Positions 8,011 through 59,170 of a DNA stretch of 64,000 nucleotides are shown here, in pieces; the first letter of the stretch is position 1; each line of letters opens with the position of its first letter. This DNA is from a virus. The translations under genes and the position numbers were made by a program. The notes beneath the pieces were generated by a model, which had not been told where the DNA came from, ran no database searches, and saw only the letters and a list, made by a program, of their open reading frames with translations. The DNA lies in UHGV virus genome UHGV-0076293; one strand, written 5' to 3'.

Positions 8011-8065
8011 TATTTTCAGATATATATTACTTAGGTGAGAGAATTACGTAATACTCATTTATCGA
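8011..8065 (+). promoter_or_regulatory. phage promoter-like element with downstream 5'-UTR hairpin (copy 1)
   Basis: TTTTCAGATATATATTACTTAGGTGAGAG followed by an imperfect palindrome; about 25 nt upstream of an AGGAG RBS; one of five near-identical copies. Confidence 0.6.
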
Positions 8066-9917: not shown

Positions 9918-10052
9918 CTAATAAAAGGGGGTGTGCTACCACCCCCTACTTAGTTCAGCAGTTGTCTTTCGTTCATAAATATTAGATGTCTTGTTTTTTT
10001 TTGCTTTTCGGGACGCATAAGGGGTCGTAGGGGGAGCCGAAGCTCCCCAGAC

Positions 10053-11615
10053 TCAAAAGAGTTCGTCACCCATACCGCCTGTAAAGACGTTAATCGACGA
10101 TGCAGTCACTGTTTCTTCTTTATCGCAATCCCAAGGCAGAATGCCAACTTCACGGAAAGGTATTACTGTATAATGGTAAGCTTCTTTAGTATCGATAATT
10201 GTACGGTGTTTACCACGTTGTACTTCTAAGTAACTATGCCCATTGACAACACGTTTGTTAAAATACATCTCACCGTCAGCTTCGTTATCCAAGCTGGAGC
10301 AGTTATCGTAAAGACCGCGACCTGGTAAGTTCTTACAGAAACTTGCTGGGTCTAACGCTTTTAATTTTTTGCCTTCCGGTGAGATTTGGTGTGGCGCTAA
10401 CAAGAAACCACGGTTACGTACTACCTGGATGTTTCGAGCGATACGATAAATTTCTTTAATGTCGCTACCGGCAATCCCGTTACCGTGACCTGCTTTACTG
10501 ATAGTCCCGAAATAGTCTCCGCGAATCCCAGCTACATGATAACCTCGACGCTTTAAGTCCAGTATTAAGTCGTTTAAGTAATGTATTTTAAAATCTGAGT
10601 TTGTGTGTTTCTGAAAGATGTACTCCCAACCGTTAGCCCGCATTTTACTACAGAGGTAGTCCGACATTTTTGTGTTGTGTAAAGCTTTCTCTTCGTCGGT
10701 AGCGTTTTCAGAAGCAACCATAACCGGTGCTTCACCTTCAAAATGACCGTAGAGCGCTTGGTACGCATACGCCAAGTTAACGTCCAGTTCGTTCTCTAAA
10801 CTTAAATCGAGAATAACCGGCTGCAAATCACCTTTAACGTTTTCCATTACTTTTTCAGGCGTATTGAATACCGGAATACTGATAGACAACAACAGACTAA
10901 AAAGCGATTTACAGTTAAAGGGCAATGCAGGCATTAGCCAAAGTTCTTCGGTAATCCCTTTGTTACAACCCAGCATCTGGTTAATGGCTTTCCATCCGGT
11001 ACGTAAACCATTACCCGCTGCTTTCTTACTGATTGAGTCGAACACATGTACGAACGGTGCACGGTTATCCGTAATAAGCTCACCAACTAGTGAGGGAATC
11101 TTATTATGAGAGCGTTCACTGAACGTAGAGAGACTATCTCTGAGGTCGTTGAGCGCCGTTTGTAAATCAACGCGCGTTTCGGTTCCGTTCAGTGCGCCTA
11201 ACGTACGACCTAATTTTTGTTTCAGTTGTACGCCTTGAATAGCTTGACGTAATTGGAAGTAGTATTGTGCTACTTGACGGTTAAGATGCTCGATGCGTGC
11301 TTCTGGTTCTTCTGGAATATCATCTTCCAGGAATTTGGTAATCGTATCGTATAGAGGACGTATTTGCGTAGTGGCCAGTTTCAAACGTTTCATGACGTTT
11401 GTGTGGTCGTAAGGCATACCGCCGTCTATGATGGATGTGATGATATCCTTGATTTCGACGAGGGCGGCACGTTCGTCACCTTCCTCTACGTAATCAGGAA
11501 GCTTAGCCTCTAACAGCACTTTTCTTATGACCTCGTGATCCTTCTCAGGGTCGGTCAGCAGACTTTCAGTGTATAGTGTGGCTAATGCGGTTATCAACAT
11601 CATTTTGTTATTCAT
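10053..11615 (-). CDS. hypothetical protein (520 aa)
   Basis: long minus-strand ORF; AAGGA RBS on the minus strand; start codon lies 13 nt from a divergent + strand gene. Confidence 0.75.
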   Translation of the reverse strand: MNNKMMLITALATLYTESLLTDPEKDHEVIRKVLLEAKLPDYVEEGDERAALVEIKDIITSIIDGGMPYDHTNVMKRLKLATTQIRPLYDTITKFLEDDIPEEPEARIEHLNRQVAQYYFQLRQAIQGVQLKQKLGRTLGALNGTETRVDLQTALNDLRDSLSTFSERSHNKIPSLVGELITDNRAPFVHVFDSISKKAAGNGLRTGWKAINQMLGCNKGITEELWLMPALPFNCKSLFSLLLSISIPVFNTPEKVMENVKGDLQPVILDLSLENELDVNLAYAYQALYGHFEGEAPVMVASENATDEEKALHNTKMSDYLCSKMRANGWEYIFQKHTNSDFKIHYLNDLILDLKRRGYHVAGIRGDYFGTISKAGHGNGIAGSDIKEIYRIARNIQVVRNRGFLLAPHQISPEGKKLKALDPASFCKNLPGRGLYDNCSSLDNEADGEMYFNKRVVNGHSYLEVQRGKHRTIIDTKEAYHYTVIPFREVGILPWDCDKEETVTASSINVFTGGMGDELF

Positions 11616-11628
11616 GGAGCATCCTTAA

Positions 11629-12153
11629 ATGCAAATTCGTTTTAGTCCACCGTGGGAAGTTCAGCCTAACATAGATAAAGGCGCTGCCGTTAAAAGTGTA
11701 GAATTGCTCCAGGCAGGGTTCTTTAACTGGTTATATGACTGTCCGAATGGTTTCAGTTCTATCATCTTACCTGAAGTAAGTCGTTCTGCTATTTATAAAG
11801 CGTTAATGGCTCCGCCTGTACTTCCAGGTAAATATTATGATCAGGTGTTACGTCTGGTCGAATCAGGCGAAAAGGTTTCCCTTGACGATTTATATGGGGA
11901 AACAATTCCTTGTCGCTTACGCTGGGTCTTTACCCAACGTGGTGATACGATTGTGGCGTCATTTGCAGAAGCGAAGTCCGGTTCGGGTTTTTCTTCGGGT
12001 GAAGACCACGCTGCGAAAAAGATGTTCTGCGCAGAACTTTTTAAATATATGCGTACCAAGACTCGCGTCGTGGATGACTGCTTCAGTACCTCAACGCAGT
12101 TTGCCGCTAACGAAGTGCTGACGCAATTATACGCATGTCATTTATCTCATTAA
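11629..12153 (+). CDS. hypothetical protein (174 aa)
   Basis: GGAG RBS; immediately upstream of the highly expressed 761-aa gene. Confidence 0.7.
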   Translation: MQIRFSPPWEVQPNIDKGAAVKSVELLQAGFFNWLYDCPNGFSSIILPEVSRSAIYKALMAPPVLPGKYYDQVLRLVESGEKVSLDDLYGETIPCRLRWVFTQRGDTIVASFAEAKSGSGFSSGEDHAAKKMFCAELFKYMRTKTRVVDDCFSTSTQFAANEVLTQLYACHLSH

Positions 12154-14504: not shown

Positions 14505-14568
14505 TTTCTATTATTTTTTGGATAGATATTATCAAAGGGAGACTGTCAGTTGGTTTAAAGGAGACTTT

Positions 14569-19412: not shown

Positions 19413-19458
19413 TTCCCCAATTTATTATAGCTGCCCACTATAGTGAGGGAATGAGGAA

Positions 19459-19764: not shown

Positions 19765-19783
19765 AGAAAAGCTACTCCGACCC

Positions 19784-19822
19784 CAGAAGGGTCGGAGTAA
19801 GCTCGAATTAATTTTTTTTTTG
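19784..19822. terminator. bidirectional intrinsic terminator between convergent genes
   Basis: CTCCGACC-CCAGAAGG-GTCGGAG hairpin flanked by an A-rich stretch on the left and T10 on the right. Confidence 0.65.
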
Positions 19823-19826
19823 CTAT

Positions 19827-22544
19827 TTAGAGAGTTTCATCGGTGTTGTCATCTGCACCGGTATCCGTCTCGTCTGTGCCTTCAGTTGAAACGTCTTCTT
19901 CCGTTGTCGTATCGGTTTCCGTCGTTTCGTCATCAGTCATGTCCAAGTCTTCATCACCGCCCAGATCGTCACCACCTAAGTCCTCATCGCCTCCTAAGCC
20001 GCCGTCGTCTTCAGAGCCGCCACCGAAGTCGCTACCCCCGCCGAAGTTATTGGCGTCCTCAGGATTCAGATCAGCTGCTTTTGCCAATGTTTCGACTTTC
20101 CCTGTTACACGTTTTGCTAACTGAATCAATGTCTTAGACGCAGAAGCAATTTCGTCAGAGATCATCTTCACATTTTCACCGCGTTTCTCTTCATCGTAAA
20201 TCAGGTCGAACATATCGTTCTCAATGCCCTGATTACGTAGCCAGTGGCGCGCGTAGAAGGTCTTAACCATCGTCTTGAGGTCATCAGGCGACATTTCAAT
20301 ACCTTCGTTCTGAAGCATATTAGCAATGTCATCCGTGACCACCAGATCTGCAAGTTTCTCGATAAATTCATAGCGTTTATCGAAGAGATCAGCTTGAGAT
20401 GCTGTTGCAGAAGTATCAGGCGGTGGCAAGGTGACCTTCATACCGTTGATAAACTTCGCCATATACTCTGACGTTTGTTTTGTCATCTCTTCGCTAGATA
20501 CATTCGGATTCTGCTCACGGATATACTCAACGATAATACGGATGAGTTCTGCTTGCAGTTTCGGTGAAGCTTGCAGACTGTTTGTAACGTAGCGCGTAAG
20601 CGGGGTTGAGAGGATTTCCTGTTTCTTCACAATCTGTTGAGTAACCAACAGCGATTTAGAATAAATCTGAGAAGCAAACTCCAGGTTCTCCGGGGTAAGT
20701 ACAAGGTCAGGATCAACACACGCGATGTGACACGTACGGCGTAACAGGTTCTCGTCAATTTGTTGATCAGGAACTTTATACTCCGGCGTGGTATCAGACA
20801 CAGACACTTTGTGGCTGGCGTAGTAATCGTTACCCGTTACGTTAAAGGCAATCCCCGCGTTAGCTCCCATTGCCCAAGCATCGTTAATATCCCCCCACAT
20901 CGGTAAACGACGGTTGTAGGAGTTAAGGATATCCGATTTGGTTTGGTCGACAGTTTTTTGACCGTTTGCATCATCTGGTGATAGCTCAATGTCGTACTGC
21001 ATGTGACGTGCCGAGTTCAGTACAGATGAGTTCATTGTCGCAAACAACAGCGCCATCCTGACGGTGGAGATGATAAAGGAGCGTTCAGTGATAGAAACCC
21101 CGATACCGTCTTCGTTAAAATCCGTTGCAAAATAGCATAGGTTATTAACCGGAATGTAAACCACCTGAGTATGACGTTTTGCGAGATGACGCGCTAACAG
21201 AATACGACCGAATGTTTCGGTAATATTCATGCTGATTTCTGCGCCACCTAGTGCCTGACTTAATGCGCGGGCAAATTCGTTTTCAGCGATTTCACCGCAA
21301 CGTGTACTTAAACGGTTGGCGATTTCCGGGGTAATGCGAGAAGTGTTCCCTAGGCCCAGATTAGAACGGTTAATGATGCTGTCCGTCATCCCGTCGTTAT
21401 TCAGGTAGTTCATAAAGTTCGCATCGCCGTACAGCGAGGAGCGAGCATTGATGAAGTTACCCATGTCATCTACGATGGTCAGATAACCGATAGGGTTACG
21501 AACGTCATCGCCAATTACCAGTGGCAGCGTTGACTCTGCGGGCAGTAAACGTTCGATGTATTCGATTTTGTTATTCTCATCCATTGAGATAATAGGAATA
21601 TCACCGTACGTTTGTGTTTTCGGTGTTGACTTATACGCCTCGTTTAAATCACCCAAGTTAATGAACCCTTTTTCAGCGGCGTCACGCTGACGGTCATCGA
21701 AAGATTGGTTAGGGTCGAACGGACTGCCACCGTTTGGTGTAGACGGCTTTTCATATGCGGCTTGCTCTAATTGCCCGTACAATCCCGTACGTGCGTTCTC
21801 ATGCGCAATACGACGATACAAATCTGGCAGCATGGTAATGCGCGGGTTATCGGTAATCGTGATTTCCATCTGGAATTTATCCGAGAACATCGAATCGTGC
21901 TTACCGAAATCGATTTTCAACGTCTGAGGACCAGTAACGGCTCCGTGTAAACGGTTGAGAATTGATTCCACACCAACTCGCTGCCCTTCTTTCGGCGCAT
22001 TAATAGGCCCGAGAATACCAAGCTGTTGTTCGAAGAACGCCGTTTGGGAACGACGAACAGATTCAGTAGCGACCTTTGTATTCAGACCGAATAATTGGTC
22101 GAAGCCGGTATCCGAGATTATCATCACTGGACTTGCGCCTTTGGTTTTTAACGCATCGTAAATCCACTGATATAATTTCTTAGGTAGCTGACGAATGTTA
22201 TCGTGATAATCACGGGTCGGTGTCAGTAGTGCGTTACGCAGATCGATGGGGATGTCCGCGATGTTGTCGTAAATCAACGTCGTGTTGATTAAGTCTTTTG
22301 TTGATAGCAGGCTCGAAGTTGCAATAGTAACGATTGTTTCGAGTTCAGGTAACGCATCAAAGATACGTTCCGCATTTTTGATAGTACGAATACGTGAACT
22401 CGCAATTGCCGTGAGTTCTTGACGTGTTGGCGTAGAACCACCCTCGCTACGCGTACCGCGTTGTTGCTGAGGTGCTGGGCCCGTAGTTTTACGAAGAATT
22501 GCAGCTACGGCGGGGTCGCCCGTTAATTTACTAATATCGTCCAT
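19827..22544 (-). CDS. large protein (905 aa) with acidic Gly-rich C-terminal tail; possible head/portal-class protein
   Basis: long minus-strand ORF; C-terminal ~80 aa are FGGGSD/DLGGDED repeats plus a D/E/T-rich tail; functional class not verifiable from sequence. Confidence 0.7.
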   Translation of the reverse strand: MDDISKLTGDPAVAAILRKTTGPAPQQQRGTRSEGGSTPTRQELTAIASSRIRTIKNAERIFDALPELETIVTIATSSLLSTKDLINTTLIYDNIADIPIDLRNALLTPTRDYHDNIRQLPKKLYQWIYDALKTKGASPVMIISDTGFDQLFGLNTKVATESVRRSQTAFFEQQLGILGPINAPKEGQRVGVESILNRLHGAVTGPQTLKIDFGKHDSMFSDKFQMEITITDNPRITMLPDLYRRIAHENARTGLYGQLEQAAYEKPSTPNGGSPFDPNQSFDDRQRDAAEKGFINLGDLNEAYKSTPKTQTYGDIPIISMDENNKIEYIERLLPAESTLPLVIGDDVRNPIGYLTIVDDMGNFINARSSLYGDANFMNYLNNDGMTDSIINRSNLGLGNTSRITPEIANRLSTRCGEIAENEFARALSQALGGAEISMNITETFGRILLARHLAKRHTQVVYIPVNNLCYFATDFNEDGIGVSITERSFIISTVRMALLFATMNSSVLNSARHMQYDIELSPDDANGQKTVDQTKSDILNSYNRRLPMWGDINDAWAMGANAGIAFNVTGNDYYASHKVSVSDTTPEYKVPDQQIDENLLRRTCHIACVDPDLVLTPENLEFASQIYSKSLLVTQQIVKKQEILSTPLTRYVTNSLQASPKLQAELIRIIVEYIREQNPNVSSEEMTKQTSEYMAKFINGMKVTLPPPDTSATASQADLFDKRYEFIEKLADLVVTDDIANMLQNEGIEMSPDDLKTMVKTFYARHWLRNQGIENDMFDLIYDEEKRGENVKMISDEIASASKTLIQLAKRVTGKVETLAKAADLNPEDANNFGGGSDFGGGSEDDGGLGGDEDLGGDDLGGDEDLDMTDDETTETDTTTEEDVSTEGTDETDTGADDNTDETL

Positions 22545-22555
22545 TGGGGTCTCCG

Positions 22556-24739
22556 ATGCAGAGATTTAACATATTTCGTGAACAGAACATCGCGTTGGCG
22601 AAATCACTGATTATTAAATCAGAATCAATCGCACAACAGATGAATCTGGCAATAACCGAGAACGGCGGTTTCGTTTCCGATAACCGAAGTACGTGGCGAT
22701 ACTACCTGCATTTAGCAGGACAACGTCACGAATGGGATAAGCCCATTTACATAACGTCGCTCGACACGCAAGAGCAGATAGAATTAACGACAGCCAACCT
22801 GTCCCGTCATAAAAAGACCTCAAACGTATTTCGTTCGAACGGCGAGTACATTGAGGAGCTGATCAGAACGTATCCTGACTACGCGATTTATATCCGAGGT
22901 GTGTTTAATCCGGTGGATATAAACTACGCCATCCGTGTGGCTGATTGTTCTATTCTCTATTACGACAGTTCATTAGTGGAGTCGCAAGAGACGTCACTGA
23001 TGTCGAGATTGGAAGACAGAATAAGGGCAGCTCACGTTCGCTATATGTCAGAAGGGTGGAAAGTTCACAACGATGCGTTCGTGTTAGCATTCTACTGTAT
23101 TCTGTATCCGCAGCTACCCGGCATTATCGGCTATATCCGTTCTTCTTTACAGCATACCACGGAAACACACTCGTTTTACGTGACAGAGTTCTTAGCATCG
23201 CACCAAGAACTTCACGAGTTTATGCCGTATCTGACCCAGAAACAGAAATTCATTCTTTATCGGAACATTCGTTACTGGGAACGTAACTCAGGGAAAGAGG
23301 AGATTTTCGACTGGCAGATTGATGCTTTGCTGACAGGTTGGGGGATGCCTGCGGTTGGGTATAATGTTGCACAACAGATACACGAACCGAAGGATGATGA
23401 CGACTCCACGTTAACACCGTTACCGATTGGTTATCAGCAATCGCTTAACTATACGGAAAAGGATTCTGGTCGAGACCTTGACATTGTAACGACGACGGAC
23501 ATTATCCAGAAGGAAGTCGCGTTAGCGTACAATAACCCGGCGTACGAACCGGAGTATCAGGAAGACTTAGATACCCGTTTAAGTTTAACGCAATACCCTA
23601 ACCTGAAAACCAAACTCATTGAAGTTACAGCAGTCGACCCAGAAGCGATTGAGCGCTTCGAGTATCTGCATAACCTCTTTAACGAATGGGTACATCTCGT
23701 CGCGAAAGGGAAATACAACATTTACCACGAGATTCTTAACCCAACAAACGGGGATACCCTAAAGCTTAGCTCAAAAGAGTTACTGGCGCTGTTCTTGTAC
23801 GCGGCGTATAAAGGGTATTCTGACGTTGCGTTAGAAGAGATTCCTGTGTTCAACGTGTTCGGGGTGTTAATCAAACGCTGGGTTTCGTTCGATGAAATGG
23901 AACAACATTTAATTCCGAGTTGGGAAAACCGTTTCGATGCGTTGATTAACTATTATACCGATACACACACAGAAGTCGTCGGAACGATTCTTAGTGCTGA
24001 TGAACTTTACGACACGGTTAATGAAATCATTACCCAGAAACGTCGTCGTTGGCGTTATAGTCAAAACCGACGTAAGATTCCTGACCGTGCAGCGGGCTTG
24101 ATGCTGTTTAACTACCATTACCGTGATTATCGTTGCGATTTAAAACTGAACTATCGTAATTACGATGAGTTCTTTAAAACGTTTGGGTTAGATTATACGT
24201 TGGTTTCGGCGGAGACGTGGCAAGATATTGCTATTGACGCATTTAACACCGCAACTAACCTGGAAACCCGCGCAACGATTTCACAGTCTGAGATTCAGCG
24301 TGCGATGGTACGTCTGATGACGAAGTTGTCATCCTACACCGTACATTTTGCTGCACGAATGGGGTCAGATTCTTACGACGTTATGGACCCGCTCTGTCCT
24401 ATCTTAGGGGATATCCCTATGAGTGGGGAGGGGTCGGTTACCATTATTGAACCCCTCTTAGGCGTACAGCAAGTTACGCGTCACCAGTATATATCCACCG
24501 ACACTGTGTTACCGGCAGCGCCTGTTATTAAAGAACTGTCGATGCCGCAGCACATCAAACTCAGGATGAACATTTACATGGGCATCCGAGTGAAAGTAAC
24601 ACAGCAGGTTGTGGTGGATATTAACGAGCCGACTACCGGGGTTGTTAAAGTGAAATCTTCGCTTGACGATTGGACGTTAAACGAACAGGTGAAAATTAAC
24701 GATCTTGACGGCTTCACGCTTGACCAGCTACCTAAGTGA
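22556..24739 (+). CDS. hypothetical protein (about 727 aa)
   Basis: ORF track starts at a TTG at 22544; the first ATG is at 22556; start lies 12 nt from the divergent minus-strand gene start. Confidence 0.7.
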   Translation: MQRFNIFREQNIALAKSLIIKSESIAQQMNLAITENGGFVSDNRSTWRYYLHLAGQRHEWDKPIYITSLDTQEQIELTTANLSRHKKTSNVFRSNGEYIEELIRTYPDYAIYIRGVFNPVDINYAIRVADCSILYYDSSLVESQETSLMSRLEDRIRAAHVRYMSEGWKVHNDAFVLAFYCILYPQLPGIIGYIRSSLQHTTETHSFYVTEFLASHQELHEFMPYLTQKQKFILYRNIRYWERNSGKEEIFDWQIDALLTGWGMPAVGYNVAQQIHEPKDDDDSTLTPLPIGYQQSLNYTEKDSGRDLDIVTTTDIIQKEVALAYNNPAYEPEYQEDLDTRLSLTQYPNLKTKLIEVTAVDPEAIERFEYLHNLFNEWVHLVAKGKYNIYHEILNPTNGDTLKLSSKELLALFLYAAYKGYSDVALEEIPVFNVFGVLIKRWVSFDEMEQHLIPSWENRFDALINYYTDTHTEVVGTILSADELYDTVNEIITQKRRRWRYSQNRRKIPDRAAGLMLFNYHYRDYRCDLKLNYRNYDEFFKTFGLDYTLVSAETWQDIAIDAFNTATNLETRATISQSEIQRAMVRLMTKLSSYTVHFAARMGSDSYDVMDPLCPILGDIPMSGEGSVTIIEPLLGVQQVTRHQYISTDTVLPAAPVIKELSMPQHIKLRMNIYMGIRVKVTQQVVVDINEPTTGVVKVKSSLDDWTLNEQVKINDLDGFTLDQLPK

Positions 24740-27420: not shown

Positions 27421-27467
27421 TTTACAATTTTTGATCATACTGTGAGACTTCTAGCGAGGAGATTTAG

Positions 27468-34088: not shown

Positions 34089-34181
34089 TAAAATTTATTA
34101 CAACCAATAGCTATTATGTGAACGCCGGTATGGAATAAAGAAGTATCGGTTTAAATTTTTGTGCGTAAAGGTAAAACAATA

Positions 34182-34848: not shown

Positions 34849-34890
34849 TCAGATATATATTACCTTAGTGAGATTACACAGTAATCACTT
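34843..34890 (+). promoter_or_regulatory. phage promoter-like element with downstream 5'-UTR hairpin (copy 2)
   Basis: TTTTTTCTCAGATATATATTACCTTAGTGAGA followed by an inverted repeat (TTAC...GTAATCAC). Confidence 0.6.
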
Positions 34891-35997: not shown

Positions 35998-36028
35998 AAC
36001 AGGGAGCTTCGGCTCCCTTTTTCTTTTT
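35998..36028 (+). terminator. intrinsic terminator
   Basis: AGGGAGC-TTCG-GCTCCCT followed by a T-rich stretch. Confidence 0.8.
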
Positions 36029-36074
36029 ACAACTTTTTCTTTTGTTGTGAGGAAAGCCGATAAGGAGTATTAAA

Positions 36075-50803: not shown

Positions 50804-50815
50804 AAGAGTAGCGTA

Positions 50816-50825
50816 GGGGGGGGGG
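50816..50825. repeat. poly-G tract (G10) inside a GC hairpin
   Basis: homopolymer GGGGGGGGGG pairing with a downstream C6 run. Confidence 0.9.
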
Positions 50826-50853
50826 AGGTCACCCCCCTACGCGAATCTTAACA

Positions 50854-50862
50854 GGGGGGGGG
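50854..50862. repeat. poly-G tract (G9) forming the ribosome-binding region of the gene at 50865
   Basis: GGGGGGGGG ends 2 nt before the ATG. Confidence 0.9.
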
Positions 50863-50864
50863 TA

Positions 50865-51368: not shown

Positions 51369-51405
51369 TTATTTTTCAAACGAATGTGTTTGAAAACGTA
51401 ATCGA

Positions 51406-51415
51406 GGGGGGGGGG
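51406..51415. repeat. poly-G tract (G10)
   Basis: homopolymer about 55 nt upstream of the gene at 51471. Confidence 0.9.
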
Positions 51416-51470
51416 TGAAGTGTTTTTAGCCAACATTTTATGTCTCCCCAACCGTAGGAGGTAAATATAC

Positions 51471-54736: not shown

Positions 54737-54782
54737 TCAGATATATATTACCTAGAGGAGAGTGAAATTTACATTCACTCCA
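54731..54782 (+). promoter_or_regulatory. phage promoter-like element with downstream 5'-UTR hairpin (copy 4)
   Basis: TTTTTTCTCAGATATATATTACCTAGAGGAGAGTGAA followed by an inverted repeat ending TTCACTCC. Confidence 0.6.
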
Positions 54783-59118: not shown

Positions 59119-59170
59119 TAATTTCAGATATATATTACCTAGGTGAGAGTTCAGTTACTCTCACTTAACC
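59119..59170 (+). promoter_or_regulatory. phage promoter-like element with downstream 5'-UTR hairpin (copy 5)
   Basis: ATTTCAGATATATATTACCTAGGTGAGAGT-TCAGT-TACTCTCAC; clean 8-bp stem. Confidence 0.65.

Follow-up and report, generated by a model that had tools for sequence, protein, structure and literature searches.

Two head-to-head gene junctions of an SPN3US-like jumbo phage and candidate promoters embedded in the partner genes

Divergent gene pairs in phiKZ-like phages and in the window

In the coliphages 186 (pR/pL) and P2 (Pe/Pc) pairs of promoters face each other in an intergenic switch region, where they are read by the sigma-70 RNA polymerase of the host under the control of repressors, and in the excludon loci of Listeria long 5' leaders run antisense to a divergent neighbour. 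Here we describe two head-to-head gene pairs in a stretch of 64,000 nucleotides of the virus genome UHGV-0076293 (the whole of which is called the window in the following) in which the start codons of the divergent partners nearly touch. At junction 1 a minus-strand gene for a DnaB-like replicative helicase faces a 174-aa gene which is followed by the gene of the major capsid protein (MCP), and at junction 2 a minus-strand portal gene faces the gene of a 727-aa virion protein (Table 1). We propose, as a reading to which we give an even chance and which is drawn from comparison of related phages, that transcription of these genes may start inside the codons of the partner gene, that the two Shine-Dalgarno (SD) sequences share the spacer, and that the divergent transcripts would have 5' ends which overlap in antisense.

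Both divergent pairs are present in phage phiKZ, where gp118 faces gp119-gp120 (MCP) and gp128 faces gp129 (portal). The phiKZ late promoter consists only of T(-3)ATG(+1) and is bound by the gp123-like subunit of the polymerase (PMC7598289, PMC4666361, PMC12809450); P119L, which is the best-studied late promoter of the phiKZ non-virion RNA polymerase, has its transcription start site (TSS) 47 nt upstream of gp119 (PMC7618050). Junction 1 resembles gp118/gp119-gp120 in the orthologous helicase and MCP, in the presence of a small gene at the gp119 position and in the divergent orientation (Yakunina 2015, PMC4666361; de Martin Garrido 2024, PMC7618050); TATG, at which the non-virion polymerase of phiKZ starts, would be a further shared feature. 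It differs in that the phiKZ spacer of about 139-211 nt accommodates the promoter, whereas the window has a spacer of 13 nt and its nearest conserved TATG lies 100 nt upstream, within the coding sequence (CDS) of the helicase. The gp128/gp129 pair is likewise orthologous and head-to-head, with a short spacer devoid of TATG, and inside phiKZ gp128 there is TTTTATGAC, at a distance of 107 nt upstream from the portal gene. In this case the difference lies in the 35-nt spacer of phiKZ, in which each SD is found by its own gene, whereas the 11 nt of the window hold the two SDs in crossed order.

The window derives from an SPN3US-like, phiKZ-related (presumably nucleus-forming) jumbo phage of the Chimalliviridae. 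In megablast the window matched SPN3US-group phages of Erwinia and Salmonella, with nucleotide identities of about 75-81% in the aligned part (26-55% of the query), in addition to metagenomic viral contigs near-identical to the window; the closest isolates, SPN3US, Stratton, Caitlin and CR5, show the same gene order. A review describes SPN3US as nucleus-forming (PMC13282480). The MCP is of the phiKZ type (PF25620 PhiKZ_MCP), and the window encodes a gp123-like beta subunit of the split multisubunit non-virion RNA polymerase (phrog_2943 'polymerase', E=1e-170; BLASTP E=5e-15 against phiKZ gp123). The helicase is a divergent DnaB-like protein with 27% identity to phiKZ gp118 (E=1e-47), and its SPN3US orthologue is annotated as 'DnaB-like replicative helicase'. 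Matches to phiKZ were also found for the portal (gp129, E=4e-34) and the 727-aa protein (gp128, 29% identity, E=9e-85). The 174-aa gene opens a rightward unit which runs on into the MCP gene; its product showed no similarity to phiKZ gp119 in a pairwise BLASTP comparison, and a small open reading frame (ORF) of 166-222 aa occupies its position in all distant loci.

An earlier note on this DNA had held the 520-aa and 905-aa genes to be the only ones on the minus strand, and these, the helicase and portal genes, are indeed the only credible minus-strand genes of the window, as ORF tiling leaves just minus-strand ORFs of 41-64 aa which overlap or lie between plus-strand genes. Annotated relatives have the same two minus-strand genes across 50 kb. 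Mass spectrometry of SPN3US virions found both gp81, named portal, and the capsid protein gp75 (PMC5105663), from which it follows that a close relative translates the minus-strand ORFs.

At junction 1 the helicase ATG (CAT 11613-11615, minus strand) and the ATG of the 174-aa gene at 11629 are separated by exactly the 13 nt of the earlier note; at junction 2 the portal ATG (CAT 22542-22544, minus strand) and the ATG of the 727-aa gene at 22556 are as close as had been claimed, with the about 12 nt given there now corrected to 11 nt. The junction 1 spacer has 11-14 nt and is nearly invariant in 12 relatives, and the junction 2 spacer has 11-15 nt in 16 SPN3US-like loci; the annotated gaps at junctions 1/2 are 14/11 nt in SPN3US, 14/11 in Stratton, 13/15 in Caitlin and 11/15 in CR5. 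Relatives with tight spacers span 51-100% protein identity and, because short spacers are kept over this range, the tight spacing at both junctions is, on this comparison, not a matter of chance.

All 80 IMG/VR loci recovered with a gp128-family alignment, the 16 SPN3US-like ones included, have the portal gene divergent from the gp128-type gene, with a spacer that outside the SPN3US-like loci is mostly 21-55 nt. The order helicase, small ORF, MCP is kept in all distant loci recovered with the helicase alignment, with the helicase divergent from the other two, and the spacer between helicase and small ORF is about 118-150 nt there as opposed to 11-14 nt in the SPN3US-like clade. Judged from this distribution, both head-to-head pairs are inherited from the common ancestor of phiKZ-like phages and only in the SPN3US-like clade were the spacers squeezed to 11-15 nt. 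Given these spacer lengths and the position of P119L within the phiKZ spacer, the SPN3US-like lineage has deleted more than 100 nt of a control region at junction 1; at junction 2 the deletion amounts, by the same comparison, to about 20-40 nt. Relatives thus share the arrangement, as the earlier note had asked, and its word 'inversions' does not apply since the orientation is ancestral to the phiKZ-like family; no convincing inverted repeats, as a trace of recent inversion, were found flanking the minus-strand genes. The arrangement is otherwise an ordinary outcome of phage genome compaction, already visible in published annotations, and the junctions of the window are the extreme end of family-wide divergent pairs and would be of a known kind (overlapping divergent units, face-to-face promoters). 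It should be noted that phiKZ gp118, annotated with a GTG start (L032 5871-5943; AF399011 117450-117522), probably lacks its first 24 codons; initiation at an ATG further upstream in the same frame gives the N-terminus MSSPKQLLVSCITLL..., which aligns from residue 1 with the SPN3US-like helicases, and cuts the gp118-gp119 spacer from 211 to 139 nt.

Ribosome-binding sites and conserved TATG motifs at the junctions

All four genes have an SD motif 5-9 nt upstream of the start codon, and at both junctions the two motifs are in crossed order, each SD adjoining the start codon of the other gene (Table 1). The usual ribosome-binding context of other genes in the window is GGAGCAT followed by 5-8 nt and ATG. 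The first codons of the partner are reached by the wider footprint of the ribosome only, and not by the SDs. The earlier note had placed both the ribosome-binding site and the promoter of each gene inside the CDS of its partner; the first half of this statement has to be given up, as both SDs fit into each spacer, while the second half is plausible and would find support in conserved antisense TATG motifs and in local synonymous constraint. Because the TSS must be at or beyond the gene's own SD, a nearby promoter, if one exists, would lie in the partner CDS. If both SDs are transcribed, their crossed order forces an antisense overlap of at least about 9 nt.

Base composition and conservation suggest that TATG may act as a signal in the SPN3US-like clade too. 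Ranked by rarity among the 256 tetranucleotides, TATG comes second on the window's non-coding strand (49 in 59.7 kb; Markov-2 observed/expected ratio (O/E) 0.44), and in SPN3US, Stratton, Caitlin and CR5 its rarity ranks 1-4 (O/E 0.27-0.39), beside the palindromes GATC and CTAG. When 55 co-directional genes were shuffled synonymously, with protein sequence and codon usage fixed, 33 antisense TATGs were observed against 79 expected (z=-6.1) and 117 sense TATGs against 184 expected (z=-8.5); control 4-mers of the same composition gave O/E values of 0.78-1.01. A TATG conserved in 5/5 genomes is also found 23-29 nt upstream of gene 2298, directly after a terminator. Avoidance of GATC and CTAG is strong as well and may reflect restriction or methylation pressure.

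Conservation within the junction genes was analysed in codon alignments of 13 sequences for junction 1 and 8 for junction 2. The window copies of the four genes contain 12 antisense TATG sites, and five of these were conserved in all 13 or all 8 sequences, respectively, against a background of 4.8% for all 4-mers (Fisher 1.6e-4) and of 6.1% in same-composition permutations (Fisher 8e-4). Among the controls (19 co-directional genes, five genomes) none of 9 antisense and none of 48 sense TATG sites was conserved. All five conserved sites point toward the partner gene and do so from a near-constant distance in the relatives (Table 1), and the sites fall where synonymous constraint is sharply delimited.

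The candidate start site of the 174-aa gene at 11526, present in 13/13 relatives, is antisense within helicase codons 29-31 (GTC ATA AGA); these codons have a usage of 14%, 11% and 10%, and all are invariant in 13/13 sequences. The second site in the helicase gene, at 11105, sits in a 15-nt invariant stretch, GGAATCTTATTATGA, where the codons CAT AAT AAG ATT are invariant, and coincides with the strongest synonymous-identity peak of the gene (0.88 vs 0.52 overall). In the opposite direction, the candidate helicase start site at 11670 occurs in 13/13 relatives within codons 14-15 (AAC ATA) of the 174-aa gene, is surrounded by the almost invariant codons CCT AAC ATA GAT AAA, and is the sole minus-strand TATG within 1 kb in 8/13 sequences. 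A helicase-sense TATG is also found 35-92 nt upstream, in the long spacer, in four of six distinct distant phages (L133, L134, L136, L137); the similarity of this distance to the 55 nt of the window fits with a promoter that would have stayed in place while the neighbouring CDS came to cover it. At junction 2 both the candidate portal site at 22808, in codons 85-86 (CAT AAA) of the 727-aa gene, and the site at 21754 within the portal gene are present in 12/12 sequences (the window and 11 relatives), and the latter coincides with one of the top synonymous-constraint peaks of the portal gene.

The first codons of two junction genes are also constrained. Portal codons 2-11 show a synonymous identity of 0.90 as opposed to 0.48 in the rest of the gene, the top value of 18 genes tested, and the same codons of the 174-aa gene show 0.87 as opposed to 0.64, with codons 3-17 nearly invariant. 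As a general proof of embedded signals 5'-codon constraint was rejected, as just two of the four junction genes exceed the controls. Portal codons 5-7 contain, in antisense, the motif TAATTTACT, which resembles the middle-promoter element of phiKZ, AAanTTACc, located at about -24 (PMC4666361); the motif is not conserved in L044, L045 and L048.

Table 1. Genes, spacers, ribosome-binding sites and candidate signals at the two junctions of the window
Feature	Position	Strand	Evidence or remark
DnaB-like replicative helicase gene, 520 aa	10053..11615	-	phrog_3213 E=7.5e-199; PF20307 E=4.9e-126
174-aa gene, function unknown, phiKZ gp119 position	11629..12153	+	phrog_8266 E=3.6e-96
Major capsid protein gene, 761 aa	12166..14451	+	PF25620 E=2.5e-207
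Portal protein gene, 905 aa	19827..22544	-	phrog_3004 ('virion structural protein' family); orthologue of phiKZ gp129 and SPN3US gp81
727-aa virion protein gene, orthologue of phiKZ gp128	22556..24739	+	phrog_3222
Junction 1 spacer GGAGCATCCTTAA, 13 nt	11616..11628	.	between helicase and 174-aa ATGs
Junction 2 spacer TGGGGTCTCCG, 11 nt	22545..22555	.	between portal and 727-aa ATGs
SD of 174-aa gene, GGAG	11616..11619	+	9 nt ahead of 174-aa ATG
SD of helicase gene, AAGGA	11622..11626	-	complement of the positions given; 6 nt ahead of helicase ATG
SD of 727-aa gene, GGGG	22546..22549	+	6 nt ahead of 727-aa ATG
SD of portal gene, GGAGA	22550..22554	-	complement of the positions given; 5 nt ahead of portal ATG
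Candidate start-site TATG (+1 G 11529)	11526..11529	+	100 nt upstream of 174-aa ATG; relatives 98-101 nt
Second conserved TATG in helicase gene	11105..11108	+	521 nt upstream of 174-aa ATG; relatives 521-530 nt
Candidate helicase start-site TATG (+1 G 11670)	11670..11673	-	55 nt upstream of helicase ATG; relatives 53-56 nt
Candidate portal start-site TATG (+1 G 22808)	22808..22811	-	264 nt upstream of portal ATG; relatives 264-270 nt
Conserved TATG in portal gene	21754..21757	+	799 nt upstream of 727-aa ATG; relatives 794-847 nt
TAATTTACT, phiKZ middle-promoter-like, portal codons 5-7 (antisense)	22524..22532	+	resembles AAanTTACc
Hairpin then TTTATTAG, terminator-like, downstream of helicase gene	9926..9947	-	sequence scan
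13-bp hairpin then CTTTTCTTTA, terminator-like, downstream of portal gene	19772..19800	-	sequence scan

Possible modes of transcription of the divergent pairs

The helicase and portal genes each form an isolated one-gene leftward unit which ends at a hairpin terminator and lies back-to-back with a rightward late operon, composed of the small gene and the MCP gene in one case and of the gene for the gp128-like head protein and the following genes in the other. Spacers of 11-15 nt would be too small for promoters and would leave just room for the two SDs. Middle and late genes would be transcribed by the phage's own non-virion RNA polymerase, and start sites within partner codons would be feasible because this polymerase needs only a minimal start-site motif. 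The start of the helicase transcript would then fall into codons 14-15 of the small gene, some 55 nt upstream, and the small gene/capsid operon would have its start within the helicase gene, some 100 nt upstream (and a further one at some 521 nt). The portal transcript would start about 264 nt upstream, inside the 727-aa gene, and the operon of the 727-aa gene either from the middle-type element in portal codons 5-7 or from the TATG about 800 nt upstream. Promoters placed in this way would face each other, and the 5' leaders of the divergent mRNAs would be complementary over no less than about 170 nt (junction 1) and about 290 nt (junction 2); the helicase and capsid units could then interfere with each other in transcription or pair as antisense RNAs, and so could the portal gene and its neighbour.

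Such an arrangement would share with 186 pR/pL and P2 Pe/Pc the opposed promoters, the overlapping 5' parts of the transcripts and the possibility of polymerase interference, and would differ from them in that the candidate promoters lie in coding sequence and would be read by the multisubunit polymerase of the phage. With the excludon loci it would have in common divergent genes with a predicted antisense overlap over hundreds of nt, where one RNA could be both mRNA and antisense. The differences are that the locus belongs to a phage and not to a bacterial chromosome and that the overlap would result from genome compaction. That the overlap amounts to a built-in temporal switch seems to us distinctly unlikely; here late antisense TATG promoters would make capsid mRNA and at the same time shut the leftward genes by collision and by the complementary leader, in an excludon-like manner carried out by a phage multisubunit polymerase inside the phage nucleus, with TATG purged elsewhere so that starts fall where wanted.

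If starts embedded in partner codons are real, the conserved TATGs would be natural, evolutionarily validated promoters of a phage polymerase that lie wholly within codons. What turns a TATG into a promoter is a question for phiKZ-type non-virion RNA polymerases in general, to which the avoided motif and its conserved exceptions would supply negatives and positives. The junctions would also show that a jumbo phage can delete a divergent control region of 100-200 nt with both genes still expressed, and they predict that a replication gene and the capsid operon overlap in antisense.

A number of observations weigh against starts embedded in the partner genes. In phiKZ, TATG is required, but does not suffice, for promoter function (PMC4666361). 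Of the seven reported TATG-contact residues of phiKZ GP123 (Ser144, Asn186, Ser330, Ser334, Asn398, Ser402, Gln466) only Gln466 is identical in the window homologue, although the alignment, at 20-25% identity, is unreliable per residue; the same weak pairwise BLASTP alignment shows conservative changes of Ser402 to Thr and of Ser144 to Cys. For the 727-aa gene the nearest conserved TATG, about 800 nt off, is no closer than expected by chance (null median 812 nt, distant loci), no enrichment of TATG near the portal junction was found in 47 distant chimallivirus loci, and a window TATG located 26 nt ahead of the portal start codon was dropped as a candidate, being not conserved. Excess constraint in the 5' codons is absent in the helicase and 727-aa genes, and one control gene reaches an excess of +0.33. 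Moreover, the helicase is expected to be an early or middle gene rather than a late one. The literature yielded no TSS or RNA-seq study of an SPN3US-like phage, and all promoter positions given here are inferred.

Two further promoter-like classes in the window bear on the alternatives. The motif TCAGATATATATTAC is present in four exact copies, all on the plus strand (8016-8030, 34849-34863, 54737-54751, 59124-59138); each copy is preceded by a terminator (hairpin plus T-tract), and behind it come (C)TA/TTAGGTGAGAG and a small leader hairpin. SPN3US and Stratton carry near-identical copies ahead of their orthologue of gene 34897, and TCAGATATATATTAC probably serves this phage as its early promoter, read by the virion RNA polymerase. 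The second class, TTACAA-N13-TGTGA(G/A), comprises three intergenic plus-strand sites after terminators (27422-27446, 36027-36051, 34098-34122) and matches the phiKZ middle element AAanTTACc in sequence and in position (about -24); the copy at 34098-34122 has a TATG at the predicted start.

It is conceivable, if doubtful, that there are no dedicated promoters near the junctions at all. The rightward operons would then be transcribed by read-through or from distant promoters, antisense across the helicase and portal genes, the leftward genes would be served by promoters far inside the rightward genes, and the conservation of TATG would reflect protein, codon or other nucleotide-level constraint. 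This would agree with the finding that in the window neither TCAGATATATATTAC, which is likewise missing from the minus strand, nor the TTACAA-N13-TGTGAG class occurs near either junction, and with the 3' hairpins of the two minus-strand genes, which when read on the plus strand have no immediately adjacent T-run. The absence of TATG enrichment near the portal junction of distant relatives points the same way, as does the 5'-codon constraint of co-directional genes, which is positive in 9/14 controls including the one at +0.33. Such general constraint would, however, have to explain why conserved antisense TATGs are specific to the junction genes (5/12 vs 0/9 in controls and 4.8% for all 4-mers) and why precisely the three rare codons of the 11526 site do not vary. 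The portal hairpin is also flanked by A10/T10 as is seen in bidirectional terminators, and the orthologous spacer of phiKZ holds a mapped promoter.

We consider it unlikely that transcription starts within or at the edge of the spacers to give very short leaders, with compact elements in the first ~10 codons of the partner (e.g., AAanTTACc ~20 nt upstream) and with promoters that are back-to-back and overlapping. In its favour, portal codons 2-11 have the top 5' synonymous constraint of the 18 genes and include the match to the phiKZ middle motif; applying the TTAC-to-start spacing of the three intergenic TTACAA sites would put +1 at ~22548. With a TSS at this position the mRNA would begin almost at the SD itself, at its far 5' end, and the TTAC element is absent in three relatives at junction 2 (those named above) and at junction 1 of the window, where the sequence is TTTTGTTAT. 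The near-invariance of codons 3-17 of the 174-aa gene would be accounted for in the same manner, but the 5' codons of the 727-aa and helicase genes show no excess constraint.

That the start codons are mis-assigned and the true intergenic distances larger is highly improbable: the helicase does carry in-frame ATGs at codons 5 and 6 and the ORF list gives a TTG at 22544 for the 727-aa ORF, but the helicase residues M1, K4 and L7 are conserved out to phiKZ (with M1 and K4 invariant) and N2 is invariant within the SPN3US-like clade, SD motifs are found ahead of the first ATGs only, PHROG profile alignments begin at residue 1 or 2 of the junction proteins, the 727-aa N-terminus aligns with phiKZ gp128 from residue 4, and the four separately annotated genomes of SPN3US, Stratton, Caitlin and CR5 place identical starts. 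The longer TTG start was rejected, as it is not conserved and some relatives have TCG.

Terminators and other conserved sequence elements

On the other side of the portal hairpin (Table 1) there is an A10/T10 run, and this terminator may act both ways. The 3' untranslated regions of both minus-strand genes contain a T9-T10 run followed by GC (minus sense GCAAAAAAAAA; 9990-10005 and 19806-19818, +); these runs near the terminator hairpins may be the plus-strand half of bidirectional terminators. Phages of this kind are thought not to use host RNA polymerase, and a scan of the window for sigma-70 promoters was uninformative, with 20 sites as compared to 23 expected. No stable RNA structure was detected at the junctions, where six folds had z values of -0.5 to +1.5 and were no better than shuffles, and no Rfam family was found anywhere in the window.

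The 174-aa gene contains a 39-nt block AAAAAGATGTTCTGCGCAGAACTTTTTAAATAT(A/G)TGCGT (12016-12054, +), located 112-150 nt ahead of the MCP start codon, with a core, AAGnnGTTCTGCGCAGAACTTTTTAAAT, in which the synonymous sites are invariant in all 13 relatives. The block contains a perfect 14-bp palindrome, GTTCTGCGCAGAAC (12024-12037), with A5/T5 flanks, and carries a TATG in 10/13 sequences (at the aligned position in 7). It could be a promoter or operator of the MCP gene or a weak bidirectional attenuator; no significant structure was seen in its RNA (z=-0.5). An exact inverted repeat of 13 nt, TATGCGTACCAAG, connects this invariant block upstream of MCP (12048-12060, +) with the sense strand of the helicase gene (10757-10769, -), where ~0.1 matches would be expected by chance in 3.6 kb.

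Further elements are located between the two junctions. Downstream of the MCP terminator and upstream of gene 14632 lies the near-palindrome GGATAGATATTATC (14515-14535, +), whose counterparts are GAGATAGATATTATCTACGTGAA in SPN3US and Stratton and GGGATAGATATTATCTCTGTGAA in Caitlin, and which may be a promoter class or an operator. The element TTATTATAG...CTATAGTGAGG (19415-19447, +), upstream of gene 19459, is placed between a terminator and this 101-aa gene, which itself ends just ahead of the terminator of the portal gene; it is conserved in SPN3US and Stratton, and Caitlin retains TTATTATAG with GTAATGAGG replacing the second half. Finally, intergenic runs of 9-10 G are found at 50804-50864 and 51369-51470, such homopolymers being absent elsewhere in the window; one of these runs makes a G/C hairpin (GTAGGGGGGGGGG...CCCCCCTAC) and two occupy the SD position upstream of start codons.

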